A stretch of DNA of 15,310 nt from Myxococcales bacterium (GCA_037441385.1 JBBISH010000138.1:1-15310); one strand, 5' to 3'. Counted from the stretch's first letter, positions 1 to 15,310 are shown. Numbers and translations: made by a program. The notes: generated by a model not told the origin, from the sequence alone.

Positions 1-3000
1 CCGCAGATGGGGCCGCCGCCGCCCTCGATGGTGCAGAGCGCCGAGCAGCCGTCGCCGTCCTTGGTATTGCCGTCGTCGCACTGCTCGCCCGGCTCGAATT
101 GGCCGTTGCCGCACACCGGCTTGGCGCACACCGATGGCTCGCTGACGCAGAAGTAGCCGACTTCTTCCGTGCAGGTCAGGCTGCAGCCGTCGCCGCCCTT
201 CAAGTTGCCGTCGTCGCACTGTTCGCCGAACTCGATCTTGCCGTCGCCGCACACCGCGATTTCTTTGGTGCACTTCGAGGGCGCGCCGATGCAGATGTAG
301 CCGGGTTCGGGCACGCAGGTCGCCGTGCAGCCGTCGTTGTCCTTGGTGTTGCCGTCGTCGCAGATTTCCATGCCCAGGACGTCGACTTTGCCATCGCCGC
401 ACACGGGCTTGATGCAGACCGAGGGCTGCCCGTTGCAGAAGAACCCGAGCTCGACCTGGCAATTGGCGTCGCAGCCGTCGCCCGCCTTGAGCGCGCCGTC
501 GTCGCAGCCTTCGCCCGGATCCAGCTTGCCGTCGCCGCAGATGACGGTGGTCTTCTCGCTTTGGCAAGTTGCGGAGCAGCCATCGCCGTCCTTGAGGTTG
601 CCATCGTCGCATTCTTCGCCCGGCTCCAGTTTCCCGTTGCCGCACACGGACTTAGTGCAGATCGACGGGACGCCGTTGCAGATGTAGCCGGTCTCGACAT
701 CGCAGGTGGCGGAGCAACCGTCGCCGGCTTTCAAGTTGCCGTCGTCGCAGATTTCGCCCATTTCGATGGTGCCGTCGCCGCACACCGCCGCGGCGATCTG
801 GATCTGGCACTTGTCGTTGCAGCCATCGCCGTTCACGATGTTGCCGTCGTCGCACTCTTCGCCGAACTCGATCTTGCCGTTGCCACAGACCGGCTTGTAG
901 CAGCCCTGCGGGCCGGGGACAGCGCAGTAATAGCCCGTCTCGGTCTGGCAGGTCTTGCTGCAGCCGTCGCCGTCGGCGGCGTTGCCGTCGTCGCAGGTTT
1001 CGCCCACTTCTACGGCCGAGTCGCCGCACAGCTTGTTGCAGACCGAGCCCTGGCCAAAGGCGTTGGGCACGCTGACCAGCAAGCCGTCGGGGTTCAGGCC
1101 GCCGCCGGGGTGGTTGAACACGGCCACCGTGATGGTGTTGACGCCGGCCTTGTAGAGCTTGCTGGGCCAGTCGCCAAACGACTGACCGGGGCCGCTAAAG
1201 CCCGAACCGGTAAAGCCCGTGCTCTGGCCGTTGACCAGCACGTCTTTGATCTCGTTGTCGGCCCAAACCGTGCCCGCGAGCACGGTGCTGCCCGCCGCGT
1301 TCGCCGTGGGGATCGTGAAGGTTGCGGTGTAGTAGGTCACCGTCGCCGGCGGCGTTGACTGCAGGCAGCTGTAGCGGTTGACCCAGCGGGTGCCGACCGG
1401 CGGATTTTTCCAGGCACCAGGGGCGCAGTTGTCGGCCACCTTGGCGGGCACTTGCAGGCCGCCCAGGGTCGCCGACCACGACCAGACCAGATCGTCGGCG
1501 TCGATGGCTGCTACGCCGCCCTTGCCGTCCGAGCCCGTGTTGATGTTCGGCGCATTGTGGCAGCCGTAGCCCGCCTCGATCGTGCACTTGGCCGAGCAGC
1601 CGTCGCCGTCCTTGCTGTTCTTGTCGTCGCACTCTTCGTTGGCTTCCAAGAAGCCGTCGCCACACAGTTCCTTGGCGCAGTTCTGATCGCAACCGTCGCC
1701 GTTGGTCAGGTTGCCGTCGTCGCACTGCTCGGTGCCTTGGACCTTGCCGTCGCCGCAAACGACGGGCGGCTCCTTGAAGCACTCCATGTCGCAGCCGTCG
1801 CCCGACTTGGTGTTGCCGTCGTCGCACTGCTCGGTCACTTCCAACTTGCCATTGCCGCACACGGGCTTTTGGCACAGCGACGGGCCGCCCAGGCACACGT
1901 AGCCGGTCTCGGTCTGGCAGGTCTTGCTGCAGCCGTCGCCGTCGACCAGGTTGCCGTCGTCGCAGGTCTCGCCCACTTCGGTGGCGCTGTCGCCGCAGAG
2001 CTTGCTGCAGACCGAGCCGCCGCCAAAGGCATTGGGCAGGCTGACCAGCAGGCCGTCGGGGTTCAGGTTGCCGTTGTTCGGGTGGTTGTAGACGGCGACC
2101 GTGATGGTGTTGGCGCCGGCCTTGTACAGGCCGCTCGACCAAGAACCAAACGACAGGCCGGGGCCGCTGAAGCCCGAACCGGTGAACTTGGTGCTGACGC
2201 CGTTGACCAGCACGTCCAGGATCTCGTTGTCGGCCCAGACGGTGCCGGCCAGCACGGTGGTGGCGGCCGCTCCGGCGCTGGCGATATTGAAGGTGGCGGT
2301 GTAGTAGGTGACGGTCTTCTCGGGGGTCGACTTGCCGCAGCCGTAGCGGTTGATCCAGCTGCTGCCGGCGGGCGCGGTCTGCCAGGCGCCCACGGCGCAG
2401 TTGCCGGCCACGGTGGCTGGGGTCGAGGGGCCGCCCAAGGTCTCGGACCAGGTCCAAATCGGGTCGTCTTGGCCGATGTTCAGGGTGCCGCCGTTGCCGT
2501 CCGAGCCGGTGTTGATGTTGGGCGCGTTCTTGCAGCCGTAGCCGGCCTCGATCGTGCACTTGGCCGAGCAGCCGTCGCCGTCCAGGGTATTCTTGTCGTC
2601 GCATTCTTCGGCGTTTTCAAAGAAGCCGTTGCCGCACAGTTGCTTCTGGCACTTGCTGTCGCAGCCGTCGCCGTCCTTGGTGTTGCCGTCGTCGCACTGT
2701 TCGCCGGCCTCGAGCTTGCCATTGCCGCAGACGGCGGTGGGCAGCTTGGTGCAGACCGACGGCGACGCCGTGGTGCAGGTGAACAGCGGATCCACGGTGC
2801 AGGCGTTGGTGCAGCCGTCGATATCGACGTTGTTGCCGTCGTCGCACGCTTCGCCGGTCTCGACCTTGCCGTTGCCGCACCAGGTGGTCACGCCGCCCGA
2901 GACGGCGCAATCGCCGCTGCAGCCGACCAAACCTGCGGCGAAGATGCCCGTATCGTAGCTGCCATCACCGGCGTCGCAGACCACGATCGTCAGGGTGTGG

Positions 3001-3656
3001 ACGATGGTCGGGTCGTCCAGACCGACTTTGGCCACCAGGCGGGGCGTGGAGCCGTCGTACTGGGTGCCCGTCTCGGTGATGACCGACTTGCCGGAGAAGA
3101 ACGGGCCGTTGATGCTGATGGGGTTGCCCTGCGCGTCCAGTGCGACGTTCTTGCCGTCGACGAACACGCCGACCACGTCGTTGAACTGCTGCCCGACCCA
3201 CTCGGGGTACTCTTCGGTACCCACGATGTAGTCCAGGCGAATGCCGCTCATGCCGGTCTTGATCTTGAAATTGACCGTGAGTTTGGCGGCATCCTTGAAC
3301 AGGGCGCCGGGGGCGATGCTGTCGCACAGGGCGTCGCCGCCACCGCCCGTATTCATGCCGGCGGACGGCGAGTTGTTGGGCGGGAGGGCCATGGTGGCTT
3401 CGCCCGACGTGACGATGATGCCGTTGGCGATGCCGAGCGGGCCATTGGCGTAGGTGCCGCTGGCGACATCTGCACCGCTGTAGGTGGCCGAGACGAGATC
3501 GATGCCCGACGTGCCAAGCAGGGCCTGGGCCAGCTTCAACGCATCCGCGATCGGGGCGATCGTCATGTCGGCGGCGTGTGCCGGCGCCGCGGTCAAGGCC
3601 GCCGCCGACAAGGCCGCCATCGTCGCCAGGCGTGCCGTCCATCGAGCAAATTTCAT
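1..3656 (-). CDS. Large secreted/surface protein: signal peptide, choice-of-anchor-L-like domain, multiple myxobacterial Cys-rich (DUF4215-type) repeats and two lectin-like beta-sandwich inserts; 3' end runs off the window
   Basis: ATG at 3656 with AAAGGAAG upstream. It translates MKFARWTARLATMAALSAAALTAAPAHA|ADM (AxA signal peptidase site), then ..GIIVTSG..YIVGTEEYPEWVGQQFNDVVGVFVDGKNVALD..YDGST..VCDAGDGSYDTGIF (choice-of-anchor-L-like), then about 15 CG[DN]G..CDDGN..GDGC..C repeats. The same frame is still open at the window edge (..DGDGCSALCTIEGGGGPICG). It is presumably absent from the ORF track because there is no stop in the window. Confidence 0.92.
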   Translation of the reverse strand, partial: MKFARWTARLATMAALSAAALTAAPAHAADMTIAPIADALKLAQALLGTSGIDLVSATYSGADVASGTYANGPLGIANGIIVTSGEATMALPPNNSPSAGMNTGGGGDALCDSIAPGALFKDAAKLTVNFKIKTGMSGIRLDYIVGTEEYPEWVGQQFNDVVGVFVDGKNVALDAQGNPISINGPFFSGKSVITETGTQYDGSTPRLVAKVGLDDPTIVHTLTIVVCDAGDGSYDTGIFAAGLVGCSGDCAVSGGVTTWCGNGKVETGEACDDGNNVDIDGCTNACTVDPLFTCTTASPSVCTKLPTAVCGNGKLEAGEQCDDGNTKDGDGCDSKCQKQLCGNGFFENAEECDDKNTLDGDGCSAKCTIEAGYGCKNAPNINTGSDGNGGTLNIGQDDPIWTWSETLGGPSTPATVAGNCAVGAWQTAPAGSSWINRYGCGKSTPEKTVTYYTATFNIASAGAAATTVLAGTVWADNEILDVLVNGVSTKFTGSGFSGPGLSFGSWSSGLYKAGANTITVAVYNHPNNGNLNPDGLLVSLPNAFGGGSVCSKLCGDSATEVGETCDDGNLVDGDGCSKTCQTETGYVCLGGPSLCQKPVCGNGKLEVTEQCDDGNTKSGDGCDMECFKEPPVVCGDGKVQGTEQCDDGNLTNGDGCDQNCAKELCGDGFLEANEECDDKNSKDGDGCSAKCTIEAGYGCHNAPNINTGSDGKGGVAAIDADDLVWSWSATLGGLQVPAKVADNCAPGAWKNPPVGTRWVNRYSCLQSTPPATVTYYTATFTIPTANAAGSTVLAGTVWADNEIKDVLVNGQSTGFTGSGFSGPGQSFGDWPSKLYKAGVNTITVAVFNHPGGGLNPDGLLVSVPNAFGQGSVCNKLCGDSAVEVGETCDDGNAADGDGCSKTCQTETGYYCAVPGPQGCYKPVCGNGKIEFGEECDDGNIVNGDGCNDKCQIQIAAAVCGDGTIEMGEICDDGNLKAGDGCSATCDVETGYICNGVPSICTKSVCGNGKLEPGEECDDGNLKDGDGCSATCQSEKTTVICGDGKLDPGEGCDDGALKAGDGCDANCQVELGFFCNGQPSVCIKPVCGDGKVDVLGMEICDDGNTKDNDGCTATCVPEPGYICIGAPSKCTKEIAVCGDGKIEFGEQCDDGNLKGGDGCSLTCTEEVGYFCVSEPSVCAKPVCGNGQFEPGEQCDDGNTKDGDGCSALCTIEGGGGPIC

Positions 3657-3996
3657 GGCTTCCTTTGTGCCGGGAACGTGATCCCGTGCCCTGAGCGAAA
3701 TGGTGGTGGGGGCGCCCCCCAAAGCGTGTGCCTTCTTCACCAGGCGCGCTCCACCAATGTCGCTTGCGTACCCCAACCTAACCGCCGCGGCCTCCCCATG
3801 AGCGCGGCGATACGAGGGCGAAGAAGTGTAATCGAACCGTCACGGGTTGGTCAAGCTCAGCCCCGGTCATGGTCGCCGTTATCCATTGGCGTCATTGTGT
3901 ATTACTGCGAGATCACGCTGCCGACGTGGCGATCACGGTCGCCGCGGACCACCCACGTGCCGGCCGGTCCGGCGGCCTTCCGCCGCGATCCAACCT

Positions 3997-4044
3997 TGTG
4001 TCATGTCCTTGAATTGGCGCTGTGTCATGTCCTTGAATTGGCGC
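3997..4044. repeat. Perfect 24-bp tandem duplication TGTGTCATGTCCTTGAATTGGCGC x2
   Basis: Read directly at 3997-4020 and 4021-4044. Confidence 0.95.
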
Positions 4045-4050
4045 TAGAAT
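4022..4050 (+). promoter_or_regulatory. Candidate sigma70-type promoter for the downstream hypothetical gene
   Basis: GTGTCA (4022-4027), 17-bp spacer, TAGAAT (4045-4050). It would favour the ATG at 4118 over 4049 as the start. Confidence 0.35.
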
Positions 4051-5086
4051 GGTGCAAGGCTCGCCGCCAATCGGCCTTCGCCCTTGGACCGCGGCCGCCG
4101 GATTGCACTGGAGCCCAATGCCCCCACTGGTCGCACCCCGCCTGCTCGATTCCGCTTGGCAGGACTTGTGTTGGCACACCTTGGCCCAGCTGCCGCTACC
4201 AGCGCACGACGCCGCGAGCCTTTACGACCCGGCCTACATCGCTTGGTGCGACAAGTACTTGCTGGCCGACCGGCGCACGCTCGCCGTCGACGCCGGGCAG
4301 CTCGCCAGCTGGGTCGCGCACGCGCCGCACGGGCACTACCTGCAGCTGTGGCCGGCGCTGCACGACTCGGTCGAGGACTTTTCCAATCAGGCCAGCCGGC
4401 CGTTTCGCGAGGTGCGATGGCCGGATGCGGCGCGGCAACACCTGGCCCGCGCGTTGCTGCGGGCACTGCCCGAGGGCCTGATCGAGGTCTTCCGTGCCGG
4501 CCTTTGGGGCGAGCTGCGCGCTGGCTACTTGGACCTTCGCGAACGGCAGGTGCGGTCGCGCCTGGCTGGTCAATGGCACGCTATTGCGTCTGATCTGACA
4601 GGGCTGGGCGCGCACGTGCCGGCGGCGAGGCCGGTCACGTGGTCCATCCATCACCCTTTGCGCCGCCACGGTCGACTGCTTCGCGAACCCACGCTGCGGA
4701 TTGCGATTGGATTGCCCGACCCGGAGCTGGGGGTGCCCCGGTACGCCCCCATCTTGCAGGGCTGGCACGAGTTGGTGTTGCTGCAGGTGCAACGGGCCGC
4801 ACCGCCTGGAGAAGCCGCCGATCCGCGCGCCGGTCGGCCGGGTCATGCCGCCCACCAACGGGTCGAGCGCCTGGCCCTGACGCTGGGGGCGCGCCTGCTG
4901 GCGGTGCCGGAGTGGACAGAGCCGCAAGAAGCTTGGCTGCGCTGGGTGTTGCGGCGCGTACCGGCGGCTCAGGTGGCCGACGTGCGCGGCTGGGTGGCAG
5001 AGGGTCGTTTGCTCGACGACGCGTCCCGCAACGAACTGGAGGATTGGACGACCCGCGTTGGCGCAGCGTTGCGGTCTGACACATAG
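4049..5086 (+). CDS. Hypothetical protein, convergent with and overlapping the B12-rSAM/PIMT gene (true start may be the ATG at 4118, MPPLVAPR)
   Basis: 345-aa ORF with globular-protein composition (HTLAQLP..ASLYDPAY..RTL..QGWHELV..VERLAL). It fills a gap with no other plausible gene. No family recognised. Confidence 0.7.
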   Translation: MVQGSPPIGLRPWTAAAGLHWSPMPPLVAPRLLDSAWQDLCWHTLAQLPLPAHDAASLYDPAYIAWCDKYLLADRRTLAVDAGQLASWVAHAPHGHYLQLWPALHDSVEDFSNQASRPFREVRWPDAARQHLARALLRALPEGLIEVFRAGLWGELRAGYLDLRERQVRSRLAGQWHAIASDLTGLGAHVPAARPVTWSIHHPLRRHGRLLREPTLRIAIGLPDPELGVPRYAPILQGWHELVLLQVQRAAPPGEAADPRAGRPGHAAHQRVERLALTLGARLLAVPEWTEPQEAWLRWVLRRVPAAQVADVRGWVAEGRLLDDASRNELEDWTTRVGAALRSDT

Positions 5087-7182
5087 CGAACCGGGCCGTG
5101 TTGGCTGACCCGCCAGCCCGTGGGGTCGCGCTGCCAGCGGGTGAGGACCTGTTCCCCGTGGCCTAGCGGCGCCACCACCACCGCGCCCACCGGCAGGCGG
5201 TCGAGCAGGTCGCGCGGAGGCTCGGTCAGGGCAAAGGTGAACAGGACTTTGGTGAACCCGTCCGCCAGGTTGGCAAAGTCGCGCTGGGCTTGCTCCACCT
5301 GAACCTGCGGCAGGCTGGCCAGCCACCGCTTGGCGCGCCCCGCTAGGCTGGGTTCGGCTTCGACCGTGCGCACTTGGCCCGTCTCGCCCACGACGTAGGC
5401 CGCTAGGGCCGCGCCGTAGCCCGTGCCCGTGCCCAGCTCCAAGAAGTGGTCGCCGGGCTGCAGGTCCAGCAGGGTGTAGTTCAAGACGTAGGCGTGAGGC
5501 GCCGACACCGTTGCGGTCTGGTCGGCCAGCAAGGGCAGGGCGCGGTCCAGTCCGGCCCAGGGCAGGTGCTCGGCGGCCAGGAACTGCTCGCGCGGTACGG
5601 CGATCAGCGCCTCGCGGACGAGATCGCTTGCGCCAAAGCGCGCTTGCAGCGTGTGCGCGAGCGTGTGCCGCTGGTCGCGGAGCAGTTCGGCGGCTTCGGG
5701 ATCCCGGCGAGCATCGCTAGCTGGGTGCCCAAGTAGGTGCCGCCACAGGTGAAAGTCGCGGATGGTCTGCAGTTGCGTCGGCGGGCTGAACAACCGCACT
5801 TGGTGTTCTAGTGAGCGGGCAAACCAGGCGCGGGCCGAGCCCTGGTAGGCGAATTCGGCTTGGGCTTGGCGGACTAGCGGCCCAAACAGCTGGTAGGTCC
5901 GGCGGTGGCCCGCGCGAAAGTCCAGCGTGCGCGATGGATCGACCCAGGCGGCGGTAAAGGCGGGGTCGGCTCCGTCCCACCAGCGCGGGCAGTGGACCTG
6001 CGTGCCGTAACGCTCTGTAAAGTCGCGCAGGTTTAGATCGATGGGCGAGCCGGGATAGAAGCGGTAGGGGTCGATGGACACAAAGCCGGTGTGCGCCCAG
6101 TCGTGCTGCAACAGGTCGCGAACGTACGCCGCAGAAGTGTGCAAGCTCCCTTCGGTTTCCCCCGGATGACCGGCGATCAGGTTGGCGCCCCACGGCAGGC
6201 CCAGCCGGCCCGCCACCTGGATGGCCTGGCCAAAGCGCTGCAAGTAGTCGCCCGCGTCGTGGCTTTTGTGGACCACCGCCAACATGGCCGGGTCGCCCGA
6301 CTCCAGGCCAAAGCCCAGACCGAATCCGGCGTGGTGGAACTGCTGCAGATCGGCGTCGCTCAGCAGGTCCACGCGGCTGAGCGCCCAGAACTTGGCCACC
6401 GGCAGCTGCAGCGCCTGCAAACGGTCCAGCATCTCGCGCCGCCAAGCCGGTTGCAGGCCAAATAGCGGATCGCACAGGAAAAGTGGCCGGTTTGTCAGAT
6501 CCACGGTGGCGTGCAGGGCCAGCAGTTCCTGTTCGGCGCGCGCCGGCGAAAACGCCCGCCAGCCAGGACTTTGCTTGGCCGACTCCATGCAAAACGCGCA
6601 GTGGAACGGGCAACCCCGGCTCAGCGAGAAGGTCACCTGCGCCTTGGCCGCCCGCGCCGCCGGCAGATAGCGCGCAAGCAGCGACCAGTCCTGCGGCGGC
6701 AAATCGTCCATCTTGGCGACGATCTCGGGCCCCAGGACGCGCTCGCTCAGCCGCATCCCCGCCGCCACTGCCTGTACGATGCGCAGCAGGGGCCGCTCGC
6801 CCTCGCCCACCACCACATGGTCAAAGGGGCTGTCTGCGCTGGTGAAATCGCCCGGCCGGGCGCTGGGATGGTAGCCGCCCACCACCAAACACACGCCGGG
6901 GTTGCGCTCGCGGATGGCCACACCCAGGTGGTAAGTCTTCAAGTAGTCGAAGGAACTGTAGCAGGACAGGCCGACCACGTCCCACTGCCGCTGGAATACC
7001 TGCTGCGGCTCGGGCTTGGGCAGGCGGGCTTCCCAATCCAAGTCCAGGACTTGCACGTCGGCCGCGCTGTGGGCGCGGAGGTACGAGCCCAGCGACACCA
7101 GGTGCGGCACGCCAAAACTGCCGTCGGCCGCAAAGCTGCAGCCGGGCGAGACCAGCAGCACCCTTACGGGGGAATTCGCCAT
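4969..7182 (-). CDS. Cobalamin-binding radical SAM protein with a C-terminal protein-L-isoaspartate O-methyltransferase (PIMT/Pcm)-like domain
   Basis: B12-binding motifs (LVSLGSYL, DVVGLSCYSS, VVGGYHPS, DHVVVGEGE), the radical SAM motif SRGCPFHCAFC and GLESGDP. From about aa 515 it shows PIMT motifs: ALIAVPREQFL, TVSAPH, LQPGDHFLELGTGTGYGAA, LPVGAVVVAPLG, GPVRYV. Confidence 0.9.
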   Translation of the reverse strand: MANSPVRVLLVSPGCSFAADGSFGVPHLVSLGSYLRAHSAADVQVLDLDWEARLPKPEPQQVFQRQWDVVGLSCYSSFDYLKTYHLGVAIRERNPGVCLVVGGYHPSARPGDFTSADSPFDHVVVGEGERPLLRIVQAVAAGMRLSERVLGPEIVAKMDDLPPQDWSLLARYLPAARAAKAQVTFSLSRGCPFHCAFCMESAKQSPGWRAFSPARAEQELLALHATVDLTNRPLFLCDPLFGLQPAWRREMLDRLQALQLPVAKFWALSRVDLLSDADLQQFHHAGFGLGFGLESGDPAMLAVVHKSHDAGDYLQRFGQAIQVAGRLGLPWGANLIAGHPGETEGSLHTSAAYVRDLLQHDWAHTGFVSIDPYRFYPGSPIDLNLRDFTERYGTQVHCPRWWDGADPAFTAAWVDPSRTLDFRAGHRRTYQLFGPLVRQAQAEFAYQGSARAWFARSLEHQVRLFSPPTQLQTIRDFHLWRHLLGHPASDARRDPEAAELLRDQRHTLAHTLQARFGASDLVREALIAVPREQFLAAEHLPWAGLDRALPLLADQTATVSAPHAYVLNYTLLDLQPGDHFLELGTGTGYGAALAAYVVGETGQVRTVEAEPSLAGRAKRWLASLPQVQVEQAQRDFANLADGFTKVLFTFALTEPPRDLLDRLPVGAVVVAPLGHGEQVLTRWQRDPTGWRVSQHGPVRYVSDRNAAPTRVVQSSSSLRDASSSKRPSATQPRTSAT

Positions 7183-7185
7183 GTG

Positions 7186-7704
7186 CTAGCCAGGTTCGCT
7201 GGTGTCGGGCGCCGGCGGCGACAGGCAAATCTGCGGGGCGTCGGGCACGTCGTCCAATGCGTCCGGGGCAATCTTCAAGCAGACTTGCGGGGCGTCGTCG
7301 CCGGTGTCGCCCAGCGCGTCGTACGCATCTGGTTCGCGAGGCGACAGGCAGATTTGCGGAGCGTCGTCGCCGTCTTGGGCGTCCAGCGTGTCGGGCAGCG
7401 GCGGCTCCAGGCAGATCTGCGGGCCGTCGTCGCTGGCGTCGGTCGCGTCGGGAAAGACTCGCGACAGGCAGGCTTGCACCTCGCCCACCGCGGCGTCCGA
7501 GGTGTCGGCCGTGTCGGCCGTGTCAGCCGTGTCCGTCGTGTTGACGGTAGCCACACTCGATGAGAGGCACGCTTGCGCACCACAGTCCGCCAGCGCCACC
7601 GCCAAACCGGCGCCCATCAGGGACTTGCGGATAAAGGCGGCCCGCCGCCGCAGAATCTCGCGGGTGTCGGGGTCTAGCTTGGGATCTTCAGGGTCGAGGG
7701 TCAT
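7186..7704 (-). CDS. Putative multi-core precursor / modified lipoprotein with six Q-[AIV]-C-L repeats
   Basis: RBS GAGG upstream. The stop lies 3 bp before the start of the B12-rSAM gene. Leader ILRRRAAFIRKSLMGAGLAVALADC. Repeats AQACLS, VQACLS, PQICLE, PQICLS, PQVCLK and PQICLS sit in Asp-rich spacers. Confidence 0.85.
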   Translation of the reverse strand: MTLDPEDPKLDPDTREILRRRAAFIRKSLMGAGLAVALADCGAQACLSSSVATVNTTDTADTADTADTSDAAVGEVQACLSRVFPDATDASDDGPQICLEPPLPDTLDAQDGDDAPQICLSPREPDAYDALGDTGDDAPQVCLKIAPDALDDVPDAPQICLSPPAPDTSEPG

Positions 7705-7769: not shown

Positions 7770-8783
7770 TCAGCCAAAGTAGTCCGGAACCACATGGCGC
7801 GCGACGAACGGGTCTAATTCGGCGGCGCAGCCGGTGCGCCACTCGGCCGCAGCACCACAACCACCCAGGCATGTTGCCTGATACGCACAGCCTTGGCAAA
7901 AGGCCGGAATGGCTTGCCGGAAGGCCGTCACCCCCGGCAGCTCGGACCAGCGTGCGCCATCGCCGGCGAACAGGTTGCCGACCGGGGACTTCTGCAGCGT
8001 ACACAAGCGCAGGTCGCCGTTGGCATTTAGCGCCGGCTCGCCCACCGCGGTGCCCGCCGAGCAGCTGCCAAAGCGGATGTGGGGGAACGCCTTCCGGTCG
8101 ATGACGCACGGCGGAATCGGCATGGTGCACGGCACCTTGAGGGCCAAACGCGGGGCAGCTTCGTCGGCGGCGCGCAAAGCCTGCAGCACCTGAGTGCGCG
8201 TCGGCAGCAGTTCGCTCGCGCTGCCCGTGGCGTACCCCGACGGGTTGAAGCGGTTGAAGGCCACCTGCTTGACGCCCGCCGCGGCAAATTGCTCAAGCAC
8301 TTCCTGCGCATCGGGCCAGCTTTTCGCGGTGCACAGGTACGAGCCCAGCACCCGCACCCCGGCAGCGCGCATCCGAGCAATCGCTGCGGTAGTGCGGACA
8401 TACGAGCCCTGGCCGCAGTGGGCGTCGTGGACCGCGGCCGAAGCGCCGGCCAGCGTCACCTGAATCCCCGCGACCGCCTTCTGCGCCAGAAACCGGATGT
8501 CCAGGTCTGGATCCGGCCCGCCGTTCGAGATGATCATCACCCGCCGACCGGCCGCGGCGACGGCGTCGATCAACTGGGGAAGATCCTTGCGGAGCAGCGG
8601 CTCGCCGCCCGTCAGCGTCACGTGCTCCAGCTCGGGGTCGGCGAGCACGAGGTCCAGGACCCGGCGCAGCTCGGCGGTGGTGGCATCGGCCAGACCCTTG
8701 CCGCCGTCGTCGCGCCAGGCGTTGTAGCAATACGCGCACTTTTGGTTGCAGTGCGCGGTGACTTCCAGGGCGACGGACTTCAT
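7770..8783 (-). CDS. Radical SAM/SPASM domain protein (PqqE/AlbA-like peptide maturase superfamily)
   Basis: Start reassigned to the ATG at 8783 (MKSVALEVTAHCNQKCAYCYN). It has LTGGEPLLR and IISNG, plus the SPASM cysteines CSAG..NGDLRLC..CQGC..TCLGGC..LDP. 337 aa. Confidence 0.93.
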   Translation of the reverse strand: MKSVALEVTAHCNQKCAYCYNAWRDDGGKGLADATTAELRRVLDLVLADPELEHVTLTGGEPLLRKDLPQLIDAVAAAGRRVMIISNGGPDPDLDIRFLAQKAVAGIQVTLAGASAAVHDAHCGQGSYVRTTAAIARMRAAGVRVLGSYLCTAKSWPDAQEVLEQFAAAGVKQVAFNRFNPSGYATGSASELLPTRTQVLQALRAADEAAPRLALKVPCTMPIPPCVIDRKAFPHIRFGSCSAGTAVGEPALNANGDLRLCTLQKSPVGNLFAGDGARWSELPGVTAFRQAIPAFCQGCAYQATCLGGCGAAAEWRTGCAAELDPFVARHVVPDYFG

Positions 8784-9590: not shown

Positions 9591-10009
9591 CTAGCCCGCG
9601 GTGGCCCTGGCCAGCTGCAACTGCGCTGCCAGCCAGTCCGTGGCGGCCGTGGCAATGGGCAGGAATTCCATGGCCTCATCGCGGGTGATCTGCGTCACGC
9701 GCAGGCGCGGAACCTTGTCGTCGATGGCGAACGGCGTCAGCGCATCCAGTGCTTCAACGGGAAGTTCCGGCGCGAGGCCAACGTGCGCGAGCGCATCGAA
9801 AAGCCGCGTCAGTTGGTGGGTCCGCGGTGGCTCCACGCCGCGCAGAACCAGGGCGCCCTTTAGTGCTTTTCTACGGCCTGCTGGCAGTGGAAGGCAATCG
9901 CCCAACCATGCGCGGTGCTGCGTCCGACGCACGCTGCGGCCACCTCGCAGTCGATCCGCGCGAACTCGAACCAAGGCGCGGCAAGGTCGAGCAGCTCGTC
10001 ACGGGGCAT
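9591..10009 (-). pseudogene. HEPN-domain toxin with a 1-nt frameshift (pseudogene or sequencing error)
   Basis: The N-half MPRDELLDLAAPWFEFARID..AFHCQQAVEK and the C-half ALKGALVLRGVEPPRTHQL..LTPFAI are in different frames. Adding one base at the T-run 9867-9870 restores FHCQQAVEKALK. The start overlaps the stop of the upstream MNT gene. Confidence 0.85.
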
Positions 10010-10340
10010 CGTGCAGGAGCTCCCGGCCCTCGCAGGCGATGCGGTGCTCGAAGGCCGGTGCAACTTGGCTGAGGCGCCGCCAGTCGGCTAGCGACTCGGT
10101 CAGGATGTCGAAAGTGGCATCCAAACCGCGCAAGGCCGCGTAGATCGCCCCCGCCGTGCGCCAATTGACCGGGCCAGGCAACACGACCAGTAGGTCGTAG
10201 TCCGAATCGCCGCTACCGGTACCCCGAGCCCGCGACCCAAACAACACGAGGTGCGCGGGAGCGAATTGCCCACGGATCCGGCGTACGGCTTCGTCCAGAA
10301 TCGCGTCTGCTTGCGGGTTGTTGGCGGTCGGCGTAGCCAT
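9999..10340 (-). CDS. Minimal nucleotidyltransferase (MNT) antitoxin 1
   Basis: LVLFGSRARG..SDYDLLVV..FDIL motifs. It is translationally coupled to the HEPN gene. The start was set at MATPTANN. Confidence 0.9.
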   Translation of the reverse strand: MATPTANNPQADAILDEAVRRIRGQFAPAHLVLFGSRARGTGSGDSDYDLLVVLPGPVNWRTAGAIYAALRGLDATFDILTESLADWRRLSQVAPAFEHRIACEGRELLHDAP

Positions 10341-10427
10341 GTCGAGTGCCTTCACGGCCCATGCTGGGGGTGGCATGGCAAGCGGTCAAGCAGCGAATTC
10401 CTGGCGCCGCGTTTCAGCTGCCCGGCC

Positions 10428-10486: not shown

Positions 10487-10947
10487 GGCGGAGCGACGGC
10501 AGAACACCGACAAAGCGGCGTCAAGATAGCCCAGGGAATGAATTCCCGGGCTATCTTGACGCCGCCCCTCTACAGGGGCGTCGCCGACCCGCGTTTTGGT
10601 GAGTGCCCGGTCAACTCCCCGCTCCCAGCTGCGCCTCCAACCGCGCCACCTGGGCCTTCAGCGCCGTCAGGGCGTCCTGCACCCGCTGCCGCTGGGCACC
10701 GCGGAGCTTGCTCGCGTCCACCGTCGCCCACGCCTGCTGCCAGTCTTGCAGGTCCTTGCCCGCCTTGACCAATTGCGTGACCAGCCGCCCCGGCTGGTAG
10801 GTCGGCGCGGGCGGCTCGGCGGGCGGCGGCGGCGCCTGGGTGCCGGGCGTGCTCGGGTCGGTGTCGTAGTAGTGGCCGTCGTCGGCGCGGTGGATGGCGT
10901 CTTCGAGCTGCAGCACGGTCCAGCCCTGGCTCGTGGTGTCGAAGGCC
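10487..10947. repeat. ~460-bp direct repeat, copy 1 (hairpins plus the 3' half of the hypothetical gene)
   Basis: Aligns by eye with 14725-15186 at high identity, offset about 4238 bp. Confidence 0.93.
10515..10565. repeat. Long palindromic REP-like element, possibly a terminator for the 10611-11321 gene
   Basis: Perfect 18-bp arms GCGGCGTCAAGATAGCCC / GGGCTATCTTGACGCCGC enclose an inner GGGAAT-GA-ATTCCC. The hairpin CGCCCCT-CTAC-AGGGGCG overlaps its right end. Confidence 0.85.
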
Positions 10948-11321
10948 AGGCGGGCGCGCAGGTTCGGCTCACCCACGCGGGCCAGGCTGACGATGTGGTT
11001 GAATTTCAGGGAGTCGCGCACGCCCGGTGGCAGGCCATCCCAGGCGATGCGGGCGAGGATGCACTGGCGGGCCAACACGGTCGAGATGCCCACGTCGCTC
11101 AGCTCGTCTTTGCAGAGCTTGGCGAACAAGGCGAAGCTGGCCTCTTTGTCCGGGTTTTTGTCGTGGTAGGCGTGGGCGCTGCCGCCAAAGAAGCGGTCGA
11201 GGAACAGCTTGCCGGCCTGCAGGCGGAAGGCCAGCAGCAGGTCGCGGGACAGGCGGTTGAGTTCGGCGAGCATGTCGGCGTAGTCGTCTTTGGTTTTGGC
11301 TAGTTGTAGCTCGCTGGTCAT
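10611..11321 (-). CDS. Hypothetical protein (helical, possible DNA-binding module, Pro-rich linker, C-terminal coiled coil)
   Basis: Strong RBS AAGGAG before the ATG; 236 aa. The segment LKFNHIVSLARV..RARLA..GWTVLQLEDAI loosely recalls ParB-like/DUF1016-N helical regions. A paralogous fragment lies at 14850-15186. Confidence 0.85.
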   Translation of the reverse strand: MTSELQLAKTKDDYADMLAELNRLSRDLLLAFRLQAGKLFLDRFFGGSAHAYHDKNPDKEASFALFAKLCKDELSDVGISTVLARQCILARIAWDGLPPGVRDSLKFNHIVSLARVGEPNLRARLAFDTTSQGWTVLQLEDAIHRADDGHYYDTDPSTPGTQAPPPPAEPPAPTYQPGRLVTQLVKAGKDLQDWQQAWATVDASKLRGAQRQRVQDALTALKAQVARLEAQLGAGS

Positions 11322-11542
11322 GGCGCTCCTTGGGGCCGTGGAGGGTTGGGTGCGAGCTTTTCATCATTGACCACCTGCCGTATGTTCGAAAGCTTGCAGG
11401 TTGGCCCGTCGTGGTGGGGCGGCGGGGTGGGTCGATGGTGCGCTTTCGTGCGGGTTTGGGGAAGGGGGCGGAGCGCTCCGATCGGGCTGGCACACTGTTC
11501 GCCGTGCGTGCTACTCTGGGTGAGGTGCTCAGGGAGGTTGCT

Positions 11543-11866
11543 GTGACGCTCGACTCCGCCGCTCGCCAGCAGATTGCGCTTCGCGTGCGCAGGGTTCTGC
11601 CCCAGGTGCGCCAGCTGCTGTTGTTCGGCTCGCAGGCGCGCGGCGACGCGCGTGCGGACAGCGACGTGGACCTCTTGCTGATCGTGCCGGACGGTGAGGA
11701 CCGCACAGCCGCGGCCATCGCTGCTCGCCGGAGCCTCATGGGCATGGGGCGTGGCTTCGACCTGCTGGTGCTGCACGAGGCAGAGTGGCGGCAGCTGCAG
11801 GACTCGCCTGCTTTCTACCACCGGCAAATTCGCCACGACGCGGTACGGGTAGACACTGCAGCTTGA
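11543..11866 (+). CDS. MNT antitoxin-like nucleotidyltransferase 2
   Basis: GGGAGG RBS then GTG at 11543. LLLFGSQARGDARADSDVDLLLIV..FDLL; 107 aa. Confidence 0.9.
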   Translation: MTLDSAARQQIALRVRRVLPQVRQLLLFGSQARGDARADSDVDLLLIVPDGEDRTAAAIAARRSLMGMGRGFDLLVLHEAEWRQLQDSPAFYHRQIRHDAVRVDTAA

Positions 11867-12194: not shown

Positions 12195-12246
12195 AGGGGC
12201 GGTGCTTCCATGCCCGCCCGGTTCGGGTGTGGGTTGCAGGTCGTGG
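12195..12246. repeat. ~52-bp dispersed repeat, copy 2
   Basis: Matches 10428-10479. Confidence 0.85.
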
Positions 12247-12263
12247 CGATTCTGGTCGGGCGT

Positions 12264-12355
12264 CCGCGCCATCCAATAACCGCCATTGCGGCGAAAGCCG
12301 CAACCCGGGCGAGGACCACCGGTCGTGCCAGGGCCCATGCGCTCAGGGGCCACCT
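12264..12355. repeat. REP-like GAAA-loop element, copy 2
   Basis: CCGCGCCATC..CATTGCGGCGAAAGCCGCAAC..CCGGTCGT.CCAG..CCCATGC..GGGGCCAC, matching 9060-9150. Confidence 0.8.
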
Positions 12356-12451
12356 CGAGTCCATGCACACGCGACCGAGGCGCTTGCCAGGAGGCGGCGC
12401 GACGACTATTCTGCAACAACCGTCCGAGGTTGCCGGAGCCTGAGGCGCCAA

Positions 12452-12775
12452 GTGGTCACCGAACGCGAGCTCTACGCGACGTTCCGTGAGCGCTTGGCCC
12501 TTGCGGCTCCCGAGCTGCTCGATGTGCTGTTGTTCGGTTCGCGCGCCCGCGGCGAGGCCCGGCCGGACAGCGACGTGGACTTGGTGCTCGTCCTTCCCGA
12601 GGGCGCTGACCGGACCGAGACTTTGCTGCGCGCCCGCCGGGCGTTGCGCCATTTGGGCGTTGGCTTTGACCTGCTCTTGTTGAGCGAGGCGGAGTGGGCG
12701 CAGGTGCGCCGCGACCCCAGTTGGTTCGGCCGCGAGATCAGCCGCGACGCCCGGCGCCTGGATGTTGCCGCTTGA
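12452..12775 (+). CDS. MNT antitoxin-like nucleotidyltransferase 3 (paralog of MNT 2)
   Basis: GAGG then GTG at 12452. VLLFGSRARGEARPDSDVDLVLV..GFDLL..EAEW; 107 aa and collinear with MNT 2. Confidence 0.9.
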   Translation: MVTERELYATFRERLALAAPELLDVLLFGSRARGEARPDSDVDLVLVLPEGADRTETLLRARRALRHLGVGFDLLLLSEAEWAQVRRDPSWFGREISRDARRLDVAA

Positions 12776-12959: not shown

Positions 12960-12981
12960 GCTTGCACTTGTAGATGCCTAC
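12925..12981 (+). promoter_or_regulatory. Candidate abiE promoter with overlapping inverted repeats
   Basis: TTGACC (12925-30), 17-bp spacer, TACAAA (12948-53) preceded by TGn. Inverted repeats CTACAAAGTG..CACTTGTAG and GTAGGC..GCCTAC. Confidence 0.5.
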
Positions 12982-13606
12982 GATTCGAACCATGCTGCAC
13001 GACGCCCGCTCCAGACACGCAACCGCGCTGCTCAACCTGATCGCCGCCCGCGGCGTCGTGCGCTCCATGGACCTGCTGGAACTGGGCATTCCGCGGAGCA
13101 CGCTGCAGCGGCTGGAACGCCACGGGCAGGTCGCCAAGCTCGGCCGCGGCCTGTACGCGCTGGCCGGTGCCGAGTTGGGCCAAGGCGCCTCGCTGGCCGC
13201 CGTCGCGCGCCGAGTGCCCGGGTCGGTCGTCTGCCTGCTGTCGGCCCTGCGCTTTCACGCGATGGGGACAGAGAATCCGCCTGAGGTCTGGCTGGCTGTG
13301 GACCGCAAGGCCCGTCGCCCGGCCATCGCAGGTCTGGCCCTGCGCGTGGTCCGGTTCAGCGCCACTCTGCTGACCGAAGGCACCGCCGTACACATTCTGG
13401 AGAACGTTCCGGTCCGCATCACCACGCCCGCGCGCACCGTCGCCGACTGCTTCAAGTACCGCAACAAGCTTGGCATGGACGTGGCGCTGGCCGCACTGCA
13501 GAGCTACATCGGCGGTCGCATGGGCGATCTCGACGACCTGTGGCGGCAGGCGGTCCTTTGCCGCGTGGCTAACGTGATGCGCCCCTACTTGGAGGCCATG
13601 GCGTGA
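12974..13606 (+). CDS. abiEi: Type IV toxin-antitoxin AbiEi-family antitoxin / transcriptional regulator (start may be 12992)
   Basis: N-terminal wHTH GVVRSMDLLELGIPRSTLQRL..LGRGLY, then VVCLLSALRFH and TPARTVADCFKYRNKLGMDVA..MRPYLEA. GTGA overlap with the next gene. Confidence 0.92.
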   Translation: MPTIRTMLHDARSRHATALLNLIAARGVVRSMDLLELGIPRSTLQRLERHGQVAKLGRGLYALAGAELGQGASLAAVARRVPGSVVCLLSALRFHAMGTENPPEVWLAVDRKARRPAIAGLALRVVRFSATLLTEGTAVHILENVPVRITTPARTVADCFKYRNKLGMDVALAALQSYIGGRMGDLDDLWRQAVLCRVANVMRPYLEAMA

Positions 13607-14517
13607 CTTCGCGTCCAGCAGCGAATAGCCCGGCGTCGATTCATGGCCGGCTGCTTGTTCATGCCCGGCATTCGGGGCTCGACTTCCAGGCGGCGCTGGT
13701 ACGTTTTGGCAACGAGCGCTTGCTGGCGCGCATCGCTGCGTCGGAGCATGGCCACCGGTTTGTTCTCAAGGGTGCAACGCTATTTGCACTTTGGGCCGCC
13801 ACCCCGCATCGGCCCACGCGCGACCTCGATCTGCACGGCTATGGTGCCAACGCTCCCGAAGAAATGGCGGCGGTGTTCCGGGCAGTGTGCGAGGTGGTGC
13901 CCAGCGAGTTTGATGGCTTGGTCTTCCATCGCGACACCGTCGCCGCCGCCCTGATACGGGAGCACCAGCACTACCGAGGGGTGCGGGTGACGCTGTTGGC
14001 GACGCTGGGCAAAGCCCGGATTGCGCTGCAGGTTGATGTCGGCTTTGGGGATGCCATCTTTCCCAGCCCCACGATTCTGCCGGTGCCATCGATGCTGGGC
14101 CTCGCCGCCTCGCCTTGGCCGGCGTACTGCCGCGAGACCGTCGTGGCCGAAAAATTTCAGGCGCTGGTCCTACTGGGCATGGCGAACAGCCGCATGAAAG
14201 ACTTCTTTGACCTCTGGACCCTGCAACGGGAATTCTCATTTCAGGCGCAAGTCCTCGCTGAGGCCATCGCCCAGACCTTCGCGCGGCGCACTACTGCGCT
14301 GCCCGCGTCGCCTCCGCTGGCCCTCACGTCGACGTTTTGCGAAGACGCCACCAAAGTTGCCCAGTGGCGAGCCTTTCTCAACAAGACGAAGCTGCAGGCA
14401 CCCGACTTGCCCGGGGTGGTGGCCAGCTTGGAGCGGTTCTTGATGCCCGTTGCCACGCCTGGCTCCACCTCGCGCGAGGGCCATTGGCCGCCAGGCGGGC
14501 CGTGGCAGGCCGGGTAG
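13603..14517 (+). CDS. abiEii: AbiEii/AbiGii-family nucleotidyltransferase toxin
   Basis: ERLLARI..FVLKGATL..RPTRDLDL..YRGVRV..LQVDVGFGD..ETVVAEK..NSRMKDFFDL motifs. Confidence 0.93.
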   Translation: MTSRPAANSPASIHGRLLVHARHSGLDFQAALVRFGNERLLARIAASEHGHRFVLKGATLFALWAATPHRPTRDLDLHGYGANAPEEMAAVFRAVCEVVPSEFDGLVFHRDTVAAALIREHQHYRGVRVTLLATLGKARIALQVDVGFGDAIFPSPTILPVPSMLGLAASPWPAYCRETVVAEKFQALVLLGMANSRMKDFFDLWTLQREFSFQAQVLAEAIAQTFARRTTALPASPPLALTSTFCEDATKVAQWRAFLNKTKLQAPDLPGVVASLERFLMPVATPGSTSREGHWPPGGPWQAG

Positions 14518-14724: not shown

Positions 14725-15186
14725 GGCGGAGCGACGGCGGAACACGGACAAAGCGGCGTTAGGGGGAGCCCAGTGAATGAATTCACGGGCTATCATGACG
14801 CCGCCCCTCTACAGGGGCGTCGCCGACCCGCGTTTTGGCGACATTCTGGTTAGCTGCCCGACCCCAGCTGTGCCTCCAACCGCGCCACCTGGGTCTTCAG
14901 TGCCGTCAGGGCGTCTTGCACCCGCTGCCGCTGGGCCCCGCGGAGCTTGCTCGCGTCGACCGTCGCCCACGCCTGCTCCCACGCCTGCAGGTCCTGGCTC
15001 GCCTTGACCAATTGCGTCACCAGCCGGCCGGGCTGGTAGCTCGCGGTTGTGACCTCGGCGGGCGGCGGCGGCGCCTGGGTGCCGGGCGTGCTCGGGTCGG
15101 TGTCGTAGTAGTGGCCGTCGCCGGCCCGGCTGATGGCGTCTTCCAGCTGCAGCACGGTCCAGCCCTGGCTCTTGGCGTCAAAGGCC
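14725..15186. repeat. ~460-bp direct repeat, copy 2
   Basis: Matches 10487-10947. Confidence 0.93.
14850..15186 (-). pseudogene. 5'-truncated paralog of the 10611-11321 gene
   Basis: AFDAKSQGWTVLQLEDAI..LEAQLGSGS is nearly identical to the C-half of the 10611-11321 product. Similarity stops abruptly at about 15186 and AT-richer sequence follows. Confidence 0.85.
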
Positions 15187-15310
15187 TGCCGTACCGTTTG
15201 CTTACTACGGAGTAGTAGGCTAGTTTTGGCGGTAGCGGCGTCACGCTGCATTGGCGATAAATATGTCTGGTGAAATCATTGCGCTCGGGCACGCGGTTTC
15301 TTGGTCTATC

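Follow-up and report, generated by a model that had tools for sequence, protein, structure and literature searches.

A 15,310-nt stretch of DNA from a Myxococcales bacterium (GCA_037441385.1, JBBISH010000138.1:1-15310; the whole stretch is referred to below as the window) encodes a fusion protein in which a cobalamin (B12)-binding domain and a radical S-adenosylmethionine (SAM) domain are followed, in the same chain, by a domain of the protein-L-isoaspartate O-methyltransferase (PIMT) family. Three further genes accompany it: a second radical SAM enzyme, of the SPASM type; a small repeat protein, here termed the precursor, that is its putative substrate; and a convergently transcribed gene for what we term the partner protein (Table 1). 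The three cassette genes on the minus strand are tightly packed, with gaps of 65 nt between the SPASM and precursor genes and 3 nt between the precursor and fusion genes; the 3' ends of the fusion and partner genes share 118 nt (window 4969-5086), which on the fusion side encode its disordered tail. In our reading the fusion probably has the central tailoring role in a conserved protein-maturation cassette of four genes.

Table 1. Genes of the cassette and parts of the fusion protein, in window coordinates (AF2, AlphaFold2; pLDDT, predicted local distance difference test)
Feature	Position (nt)	Strand	Product or extent	Basis or detail
Fusion gene (P0001)	4969..7182	-	737 aa; B12-binding + radical SAM + PIMT-like methyltransferase	Pfam, AF2
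B12-binding Rossmann-like domain	6784..7095	-	residues 30-133	PF02310, E 3.3e-12
Radical_SAM core	6136..6627	-	residues 186-349	PF04055, E 6e-9
CxxxCxxC cluster motif (CPFHCAFC)	6589..6612	-	C191/C195/C198	inside the radical SAM core
Helical region after the radical SAM core, and linker	5656..6135	-	residues 350-509	alignment; confident in AF2 model
PIMT-like (PCMT) class I methyltransferase domain	5077..5655	-	residues 510-702	PF01135, E 9.3e-25
C-terminal low-complexity tail	4972..5076	-	residues 703-737	pLDDT <50
Precursor (putative substrate) gene	7186..7704	-	172 aa	GAGG 8 nt before ATG; stop 3 nt before fusion ATG
Radical SAM/SPASM maturase gene	7770..8783	-	337 aa from ATG at 8783	PF04055, E 2.1e-19; Fer4_12
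Partner gene	4118..5086	+	322 aa	alternative ATG at 4049; promoter-like site 4022-4050

The fusion enzyme and its distribution

The fusion is encoded by one ATG-to-stop frame with no internal stops. A first-pass annotation of this DNA had described just such an uninterrupted frame with B12-binding, CxxxCxxC and PIMT domains, and the three Pfam domains bear it out: the PCMT domain falls close to the approximate position (5085-5630) given there, and the motifs that it quoted, CxxxCxxC (as CPFHCAFC), TVSAPH (residues 558-563), ELGTGTGY (582-589) and FTKVLFTFA, are all found in the translation. The PF01135 match covers profile positions 9-204 of 210 and, with 88.1 bits, exceeds the gathering score of 20.3. 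The AF2 model (mean pLDDT 87.1, predicted TM-score 0.82) is confident throughout except in residues 703-737, a disordered, Ser/Thr-rich tail; more distant relatives stop near residue 705.

In an alignment of 18 diverse members the B12 radical SAM part is characterized by an invariant Cys triad, the motif GGYHxSARP of the B12-binding domain (GGYHPSARP in the window), and the motifs GFGLESG and GANxIxGHPGET; the helical region that follows (residues 350-509) has the invariant WW pair W401 W402, and invariant W413, D415 and S417. In the PIMT part of the same members S560, A561, H563, A564, Y565, G584, G586, G588, Y589 and E608 are invariant and T558 of the T-x-S-A-x-H motif nearly so. The T-x-S-A-x-H and GxGxGY motifs and the acidic residue align with the same segments of the solved PIMTs 2yxe, 4o29 and 1jg1, and presumably have the roles known from PIMT structures (carboxylate site, SAM motif I). 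The GDG segment (motif II), noted as missing by the first-pass annotation, is in the alignment to solved PIMTs indeed replaced by a variable stretch, EQAQRDFANLA in the window. By these motifs both the radical SAM and the PIMT modules look intact, and the presence of two different SAM-using modules in one chain, pointed out at the outset, is a conserved property of the family. The invariance of the SAM- and carboxylate-binding motifs across 18 members at 41-84% identity argues for retained PIMT catalysis. The fusion is, judging from sequence, a genuine single-chain enzyme, in which a class-B-type radical SAM enzyme is joined to a PIMT-type carboxyl methyltransferase.

A word-indexed protein search scored 8000 candidates and returned 647 proteins at E <= 1e-3, of which the best 120 were listed. 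All three domains (PF02310, PF04055, PF01135) are present in 117 of these best 120 relatives, which show 41-84% identity and are mostly 700-750 aa long (the exceptions being P0047, P0050 and P0058); thus the modules are not always encoded by two unlinked genes. Of 229 pattern-matched stretches in contigs taken from one genome per species, 195 code for a relative, mostly in Myxococcota. From these contigs, many of which are short, we kept 80 loci, the base of all locus counts below: they come mostly from Polyangiaceae, Nannocystaceae and Sandaracinaceae, with a few Planctomycetota and one Aminicenantes metagenome-assembled genome (MAG). Most apparent truncations of the PCMT part among them can be traced to insertions or to the end of a contig (the part is whole at L035 and L051). 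Where the region is intact, three of the 80 lack an intact PCMT part: L047 and L049, where it is degenerate, and L072, where it is absent. When 1.84 billion cluster representatives were searched exhaustively with HMMER, 160 proteins reached E <= 1e-30. In 38 of 301 sampled Myxococcota genomes there is a relative of the B12 radical SAM part at E <= 1e-40. The fusion is single-copy in the window's genome. Relatives and dozens of independent assemblies preserve the continuous frame, so its junction is no assembly accident. Public annotations of the relatives are automatic, for example 'cobalamin B12-binding domain-containing protein' and 'protein-L-isoaspartate O-methyltransferase'.

The SPASM enzyme, the precursor and the partner protein

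The SPASM enzyme is characterized by a CNQKCAYC motif and a C-terminal auxiliary-cluster motif of the form CX2CX5CX3C, CQGCAYQATCLGGC. By tblastn its gene is present in 73 of the 80 loci, and in 72 of these 73 it lies upstream of the fusion on the same strand, at a distance of 43-2220 nt; five of the seven loci without it have less than 1.8 kb of upstream sequence. Its best NCBIfam matches are peptide maturases, all below cut-off (the top one at 79 against 400). It matches SkfB (E 5.2e-9) and, over the full length, PqqE (E 1.9e-8), and it also aligns in full length, below cut-off, with the PapB and GeoRSP models. One Planctomycetaceae MAG encodes SPASM enzyme and partner together in a single 672-aa frame (L009:10714-12729, minus strand), downstream of the fusion and on the opposite strand to it.

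The precursor of the window opens with an acidic N-terminus, which is followed by the twin-arginine leader EILRRRAAFIRK, then by a hydrophobic stretch that leads to Cys41, and finally by six x-C-L repeats; its repeat region is rich in Asp and Pro, with 24 Asp in the 131 residues past the leader Cys. BLAST catches such proteins poorly (11 of 80 loci). A motif scan recovers 73 precursors in 52 of the 80 loci plus the window, one to three per locus; their genes either occupy the interval from the SPASM gene to the fusion or adjoin the partner gene on the other strand. The specificity of the scan is borne out by the absence of any match in 434 kb of sister-family loci and by exactly one, the window gene, in the 6.6-Mb genome. 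The same plan holds across the family: an acidic N-terminus, a twin-arginine motif (ILARRxRF[IV], ILxRRxFLI), a hydrophobic stretch, a Cys located 13-28 residues past the start of the twin-arginine motif, and 2-11 repeats. All of the 30 precursors that were aligned share R20, R21 and C41.

The repeat itself has the form P-x-[PV]-C-L. Counting from the Cys at position 0, Pro occupies -3 in 86% of the repeats, Gln -2 in 47%, and -1 is P, V, A or I; +1 is essentially always Leu, +2 is S, K, E, T or D and +3 is P, V or I. Leu follows 359 of all 433 precursor Cys, the remainder amounting to about one leader Cys per protein. The median composition of the 73 precursors is 21% Pro and 8.9% Asp. Pfam and NCBIfam scans of 30 of them gave nothing beyond isolated weak signal-type matches. 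The window's genome encodes TatC, a component of twin-arginine translocation (Tat). The fusion very likely acts on this single adjacent protein. The first-pass annotation had predicted one Asp-rich substrate; an adjacent substrate is thus upheld, and the window's precursor is Asp-rich, but Asp does not survive as the defining target: going by the repeat statistics, the invariant element of the putative substrate is Cys-Leu within P-x-P-C-L, not Asp.

The partner protein was detected in 20 of the 80 loci by direct tblastn and in 48 by iterated blastp. Its invariant residues are D58, G185, R186, H217, E218 and E250, and its AF2 model is confident (pLDDT 94.1); none of 23 members has a Pfam or NCBIfam match. 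Natural fusions occur: P0037 (1062 aa) strings together B12-binding, radical SAM, PCMT and partner parts (hhalign probability 99.8), while at L047, L049 and L072 the B12 radical SAM enzyme is joined to the partner. Fusions of three kinds in all tie the partner to the enzymes. A predicted complex of partner and precursor scores 0.88 in three of three runs, the best of three controls scoring 0.00; the mark applied was reached by 116 of 157 solved complexes and by 2 of 215 mismatched pairs, counts that are only roughly valid here because the analyst's own alignments were used. The runs share at least 23% of contacts, with a partner pLDDT of at least 42. In the modelled interface the partner contacts precursor residues 12-28, namely the twin-arginine leader, and the invariant D58 and near-invariant E123 contact R21. 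We know of no solved complex of this kind from which the prediction could have been copied. The model supports binding of the twin-arginine leader by the partner protein.

As for its fold, many of the next matches of the partner in the VIA wide structural search, below the best one discussed further on, are zincins, along with two HExxH-domain oxygenases, at Z of about 5, a level that the tool rates uncertain. H217-E218 and E250 are invariant and there is no second His at +4, so an HExxH motif is absent. The ESM Atlas places the partner with unnamed clusters (0.95-0.96), the nearest named family being DUF4932 (0.89). A zincin-like fold is thus a weak, model-based lead.

Relationships to known enzymes and sister families

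The fusion has the N-terminal B12-binding domain and CxxxCxxC radical SAM layout of the class B enzymes, and shares the order of Rossmann domain and barrel with TokK, TsrM, CysS, MgmA/QCMT, OxsB, ApyD and AprD4. Its sequence profile matches TokK (7kdx, E 3.7e-17) and AprD4 (6fd2, E 5.4e-13), and its N-terminal ~500 residues retrieve AprD4, TsrM, OxsB, TokK, MgmA and CysS in Foldseek searches at E 1e-15 to 1e-18. The solved class B members are 13-20% identical to the fusion and none carries a PIMT domain. Scans of P0001 and 18 members with curated class B models brought none near cut-off, the best being TIGR04013 (71.5 against 251 bits). ApyD gives a weak NCBIfam match; it is described as a Tyr beta-C-methylase of a pathway for peptides that ribosomes make and that are modified after translation (RiPPs) (PMC10635010).

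The PIMT domain is closest to housekeeping PIMTs. It matches 2yxe, 4o29 and 3lbf over the full domain (30-32% identity, target TM-score 0.86-0.88, root-mean-square deviation 1.8-1.9 Å), with a target TM-score of 0.86-0.87 over 207 columns for 2yxe, the PIMT of M. jannaschii. Like these and 1jg1 it retains T-x-S-A-x-H and GxGxGY, has an acidic residue following strand 2, and ends in VxxV. Unlike housekeeping Pcm, however, it stands behind a 500-aa radical SAM enzyme, lacks GDG and is tied to a specific substrate gene, and its scores lie well under the Pcm equivalog cut-offs (101.9 against 282 bits for NF010549, 95.9 against 188 for NF001453, 88.8 against 159 for TIGR00080). On these features the PIMT domain of the fusion is not the housekeeping Pcm. 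A functional parallel is offered by the RiPP aspartyl O-methyltransferases (OlvS(A) and those associated with lasso peptides and graspetides), where a PIMT-family domain has likewise been recruited to a dedicated peptide maturation cluster and, as PMC11285071 describes, acts after another enzyme has modified the substrate. The fusion differs from them in that its substrate has no conserved Asp and a radical SAM enzyme shares the chain with the domain. The RiPP methyltransferase models also stay below cut-off (TIGR04364, FxLD, 67.1 against 320 bits; TIGR04188, ATP-grasp, 55.5 against 380), and in all 18 members scanned the housekeeping models outscore them.

The upstream enzyme shares its core and the full CX2CX5CX3C motif with SPASM maturases such as SkfB, PqqE, PapB, GeoRSP and the QhpD type. 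PapB and QhpD reportedly make Cys-to-Asp/Glu thioethers. Unlike these maturases it has no N-terminal RiPP recognition element (RRE), as its Cys motif begins at about residue 12, and its putative substrate is a repeat protein of ~100-280 aa with a signal-like leader. For the partner protein two functional analogs suggest themselves. The PqqD-like RRE is likewise an accessory leader-binder, the role in which the partner is modelled, and the partner too occurs free or fused to different maturases; the TorD/DmsD-type chaperones, which proofread Tat substrates, provide a parallel for a protein modelled on the twin-arginine segment itself. Neither of the two, however, is matched by the partner in sequence or in fold.

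At 30-37% identity, most relatives of the B12 radical SAM part stand alone, as proteins of 450-530 aa. In five of six tested relatives of 667-713 aa a cyclophilin prolyl isomerase (PF00160) replaces the PIMT domain at the C-terminus; these form a sister clade (P0151, P0153, P0160, P0168, P0179) with 33-37% identity over residues 7-419. None was found in the 301 Myxococcota genomes, where all 38 matches are to the radical SAM part only (30-36% identity), and a metagenome scan for the clade retrieved mostly stand-alone relatives and four close loci that are incomplete. The swap of PIMT for cyclophilin makes the C-terminal module look exchangeable, with a role in handling extended peptides, which fits a Pro-rich substrate. 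A distant radical SAM/SPASM-type gene (46-62 bits) is found in 15 of 79 loci retrieved with sister queries; in six of these (L115, L138, L158, L162, L165 and L176) no more than about 1 kb separates it from the B12 radical SAM gene, of which it lies upstream. A further two of the retrieved loci, L169 and L175, are loci of the fusion cassette itself. Small Cys-rich peptide frames occur in four of seven inspected sister loci (L158, L162, L165, L176). Several of these (L176:1872-1979, L176:2107-2253, L165:2348-2458, L158:2133-2276) encode peptides 35-48 aa long that have three Cys and a (Y)LIDP leader in common, at loci where the B12 radical SAM relative is a stand-alone protein; one sister-locus peptide matches the Clo7bot Cys-rich model below cut-off (22.1 against 31 bits). 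These observations support a peptide-maturation role for the pair of B12 radical SAM and SPASM enzymes, with Cys as the common theme.

Proposed maturation scheme, its alternatives and significance

The best explanation for these associations is, in our estimate with a probability of roughly two in three, a RiPP-like maturation cassette acting on an exported Pro-x-Pro-Cys-Leu lipoprotein. The substrate would be the neighboring 172-aa protein, with its Tat-lipoprotein-like N-terminus and a body that is a string of P-x-[PV]-C-L repeats. The partner would grip the leader and offer the unfolded repeats to the enzymes, much like the RRE domain of a RiPP pathway, and may also delay export till modification is complete. 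The SPASM enzyme would act on the invariant Cys, by thioether formation or oxidation of the beta-carbon; the B12 radical SAM domain would act at one of the motif's unactivated carbons, most likely by C-methylating Leu or Pro; and the PIMT domain would O-methylate a carboxylate of the substrate. Candidates for the latter are flanking Asp or Glu, the C-terminal carboxylate, or a carboxylate produced by the earlier steps; a PIMT homologue in a lasso-peptide pathway is said to methylate the C-terminal alpha-carboxylate, which is a lead for the carboxylate target only. The modified protein would then be exported via Tat and lipidated. We infer every chemical step in this scheme, as also the step order, the use of cobalamin and the export.

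Several observations weigh against this scheme. The proposed chemistry is read from the domain families. Structurally, the radical SAM part comes closest to AprD4, which is a diol dehydratase and not a methylase, so that methylation is not assured; AprD4 is also said to work without cobalamin. CobS (PF02654) went undetected in the window's genome (G000, 91% complete), although this genome encodes several B12-binding radical SAM proteins; cobalamin may be imported. A universal carboxylate target for the PIMT domain was sought across the precursors and none was identified. Signal models offer weak support for a Tat lipoprotein: LPAM_MltD matches 6 of 30 precursors (best E 0.0014), the UCR_Fe-S_N TAT signal two of 30 (E 0.012) and TAT_signal one of 30 (E 0.24), so this reading draws mainly on the motif. 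The cassette is also incompletely represented: the SPASM gene was not found in the available DNA of L007 and L020, and simple searches of often short contigs did not detect precursors in 28 of the 80 loci or the partner in 32. The fold of the partner is weakly assigned, with no Foldseek match in the PDB at E <= 0.001 and a best Z of 6.5, to an ArdC metalloprotease domain, in the VIA search. Finally, the score of the partner-precursor complex is the model's own confidence, obtained from the analyst's own alignments.

The first-pass annotation had instead suggested, as an example, beta-C-methylation of Asp coupled to aspartimide or isoAsp formation. In such a scheme the B12 radical SAM domain would methylate the beta-carbon of Asp and the PIMT domain would methylate the side chain en route to aspartimide or isoAsp, in the manner of RiPP aspartyl O-methyltransferases. 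The abundance of Asp past the leader of the window's precursor and in the family at large (see above) is in keeping with it: C-L repeats outnumber Asp in no more than seven of the 73 precursors, and Asp and Glu combined in no more than two. The nearest acidic residue downstream of a Cys is mostly at +2, +6 or +7 (70, 50 and 56 of 358 repeats), and the carboxylate-binding motifs of the PIMT domain are intact. Relatives of PIMT in RiPP pathways usually require a pre-cyclized substrate, according to PMC11285071, and the SPASM enzyme could supply one. Asp, however, reaches at most 26% at any position (-6, in 324 repeat windows from the 73 precursors), against 100% for Cys and nearly 100% for Leu; 74 of the 358 repeats are followed by the next one with no acidic residue in between; and the precursors at L007:1682-1921 and at L005 have at most one Asp past the leader, while the enzyme of L007 (P0028) keeps its PIMT motifs. 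The domain, moreover, scores higher with housekeeping PIMT models (89-102 bits) than with FxLD (67.1) or ATP-grasp (55.5) ones. As Asp is not conserved and some repeats and precursors are poor in it, an Asp-directed step cannot be the universal logic of the family. The suggested pair of reactions is accordingly one possibility that the data do not favor, and we consider it unlikely. An Asp- or Glu-directed step, such as a Cys-to-acid thioether with subsequent carboxyl methylation, is possible for many individual repeats. A fixed Cys-to-acid spacing (Cys-x3-Asp, as in PapB substrates) was considered separately and rejected as a general rule on the repeat statistics.

Still less likely, in our view, is that the PIMT domain is no new tailoring catalyst and serves either as a peptide clamp for the radical SAM domain or as built-in isoAsp repair for a disordered substrate rich in Asp-Gly and Asp-Ala. 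Its position is held in the sister clade by cyclophilin, which also handles extended peptides, the enzyme persists at L047, L049 and L072 despite a degenerate or absent PCMT part, and the domain is most like housekeeping PIMTs. Yet SAM- and carboxylate-binding motifs that are invariant over the 18 members argue for retained catalysis, loss of the domain is confined to three of 80 loci, and the almost Asp-free precursors would need no isoAsp repair. Far more improbable than either is the trivial explanation, an assembly or frameshift artefact or a chance fusion of housekeeping Pcm. A canonical stand-alone Pcm was seen in none of 13 genomes of the window's family (G000-G012), where the best non-fusion PF01135 matches reach at most 47 bits and cover the SAM-binding segment only; seven other families of the class have canonical Pcm at 199-228 bits. 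The fusion, however, is present in just five of the 13 genomes, and hence is no general replacement of Pcm; G017 and G019 hold a canonical Pcm (212-228 bits) in addition to this type of fusion; and the fusion travels with the SPASM gene and keeps its continuous frame in the relatives, as shown above. Taken as a whole, the fusion cassette most likely signals new protein chemistry and not the repair of Asp.

A more far-reaching version of the RiPP-like maturation scheme is conceivable, which we offer tentatively and at odds clearly short of even: a new class of RiPP-lipoproteins, in which three SAM sites would rebuild each P-x-P-C-L motif in the cytoplasm, a protein of a new leader-binding fold, zincin-like and distinct from the RRE, would read the twin-arginine leader, and the PIMT domain would act on a carboxylate other than that of Asp or isoAsp. 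If true, one protein would handle both substrate recruitment and the timing of Tat export, and the carboxylate used by the PIMT domain could be created by the radical steps.

The remaining genes of the window are of other kinds. At 3-3776 on the minus strand lies a secreted-looking protein of more than 1258 aa, which runs off the window and has 14 Cys-rich DUF4215 repeats (PF13948, E 1.2e-84) and two internal duplications of ~300 aa; it is not conserved beside the cassette in other loci. Modules of toxin-antitoxin or defense type adjoin the cassette at 9999-10376 (minus strand), 11330-11866, 12227-12775 and 12974-14517 (plus strand). This cluster comprises three paralogous MNT/Pol-beta-type nucleotidyltransferases (PF01909), followed by an AbiEi-like antitoxin (PF13338) and an AbiEii toxin (PF08843, E 4.3e-41). 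Two minus-strand genes without Pfam matches, at 10611-11321 and 14850-15251, share a near-identical C-terminus of ~100 aa, QGWTVLQLEDAI...VARLEAQLG, which suggests a duplicated module flanking the nucleotidyltransferase genes.

Radical-SAM-based maturation of peptides and proteins is of a known kind; the enzyme architecture, the class of substrate and the leader-binding protein appear to be new. None of the four cassette proteins reaches the cut-off of a curated model (NCBIfam, and for the partner and precursors also Pfam). Searches of the open full-text literature, which leaves subscription papers and supplements outside, turned up neither a fusion of B12 radical SAM and PIMT domains nor a P-x-P-C-L repeat substrate, and term look-ups within PMC11285071, PMC10288494 and PMC8939145 gave no description of either in the passages reached; the first-pass annotation's remark that it knew of no characterized enzyme with this architecture has thus held. 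Radical SAM maturases and PIMT-type methyltransferases are each rich in new peptide chemistry, and here the two are covalently fused in a conserved family that has no characterized member. The system is common, with relatives in 195 species genomes, and the candidate substrate in hand makes its chemistry directly testable. That substrate would be a whole exported lipoprotein with up to 11 short motifs, and not a small antibiotic-like peptide. The partner protein, as modelled, would represent a second, structurally unrelated solution to leader recognition, with a possible link between modification and Tat export. RiPP-type chemistry would thereby reach the proteins of the envelope.

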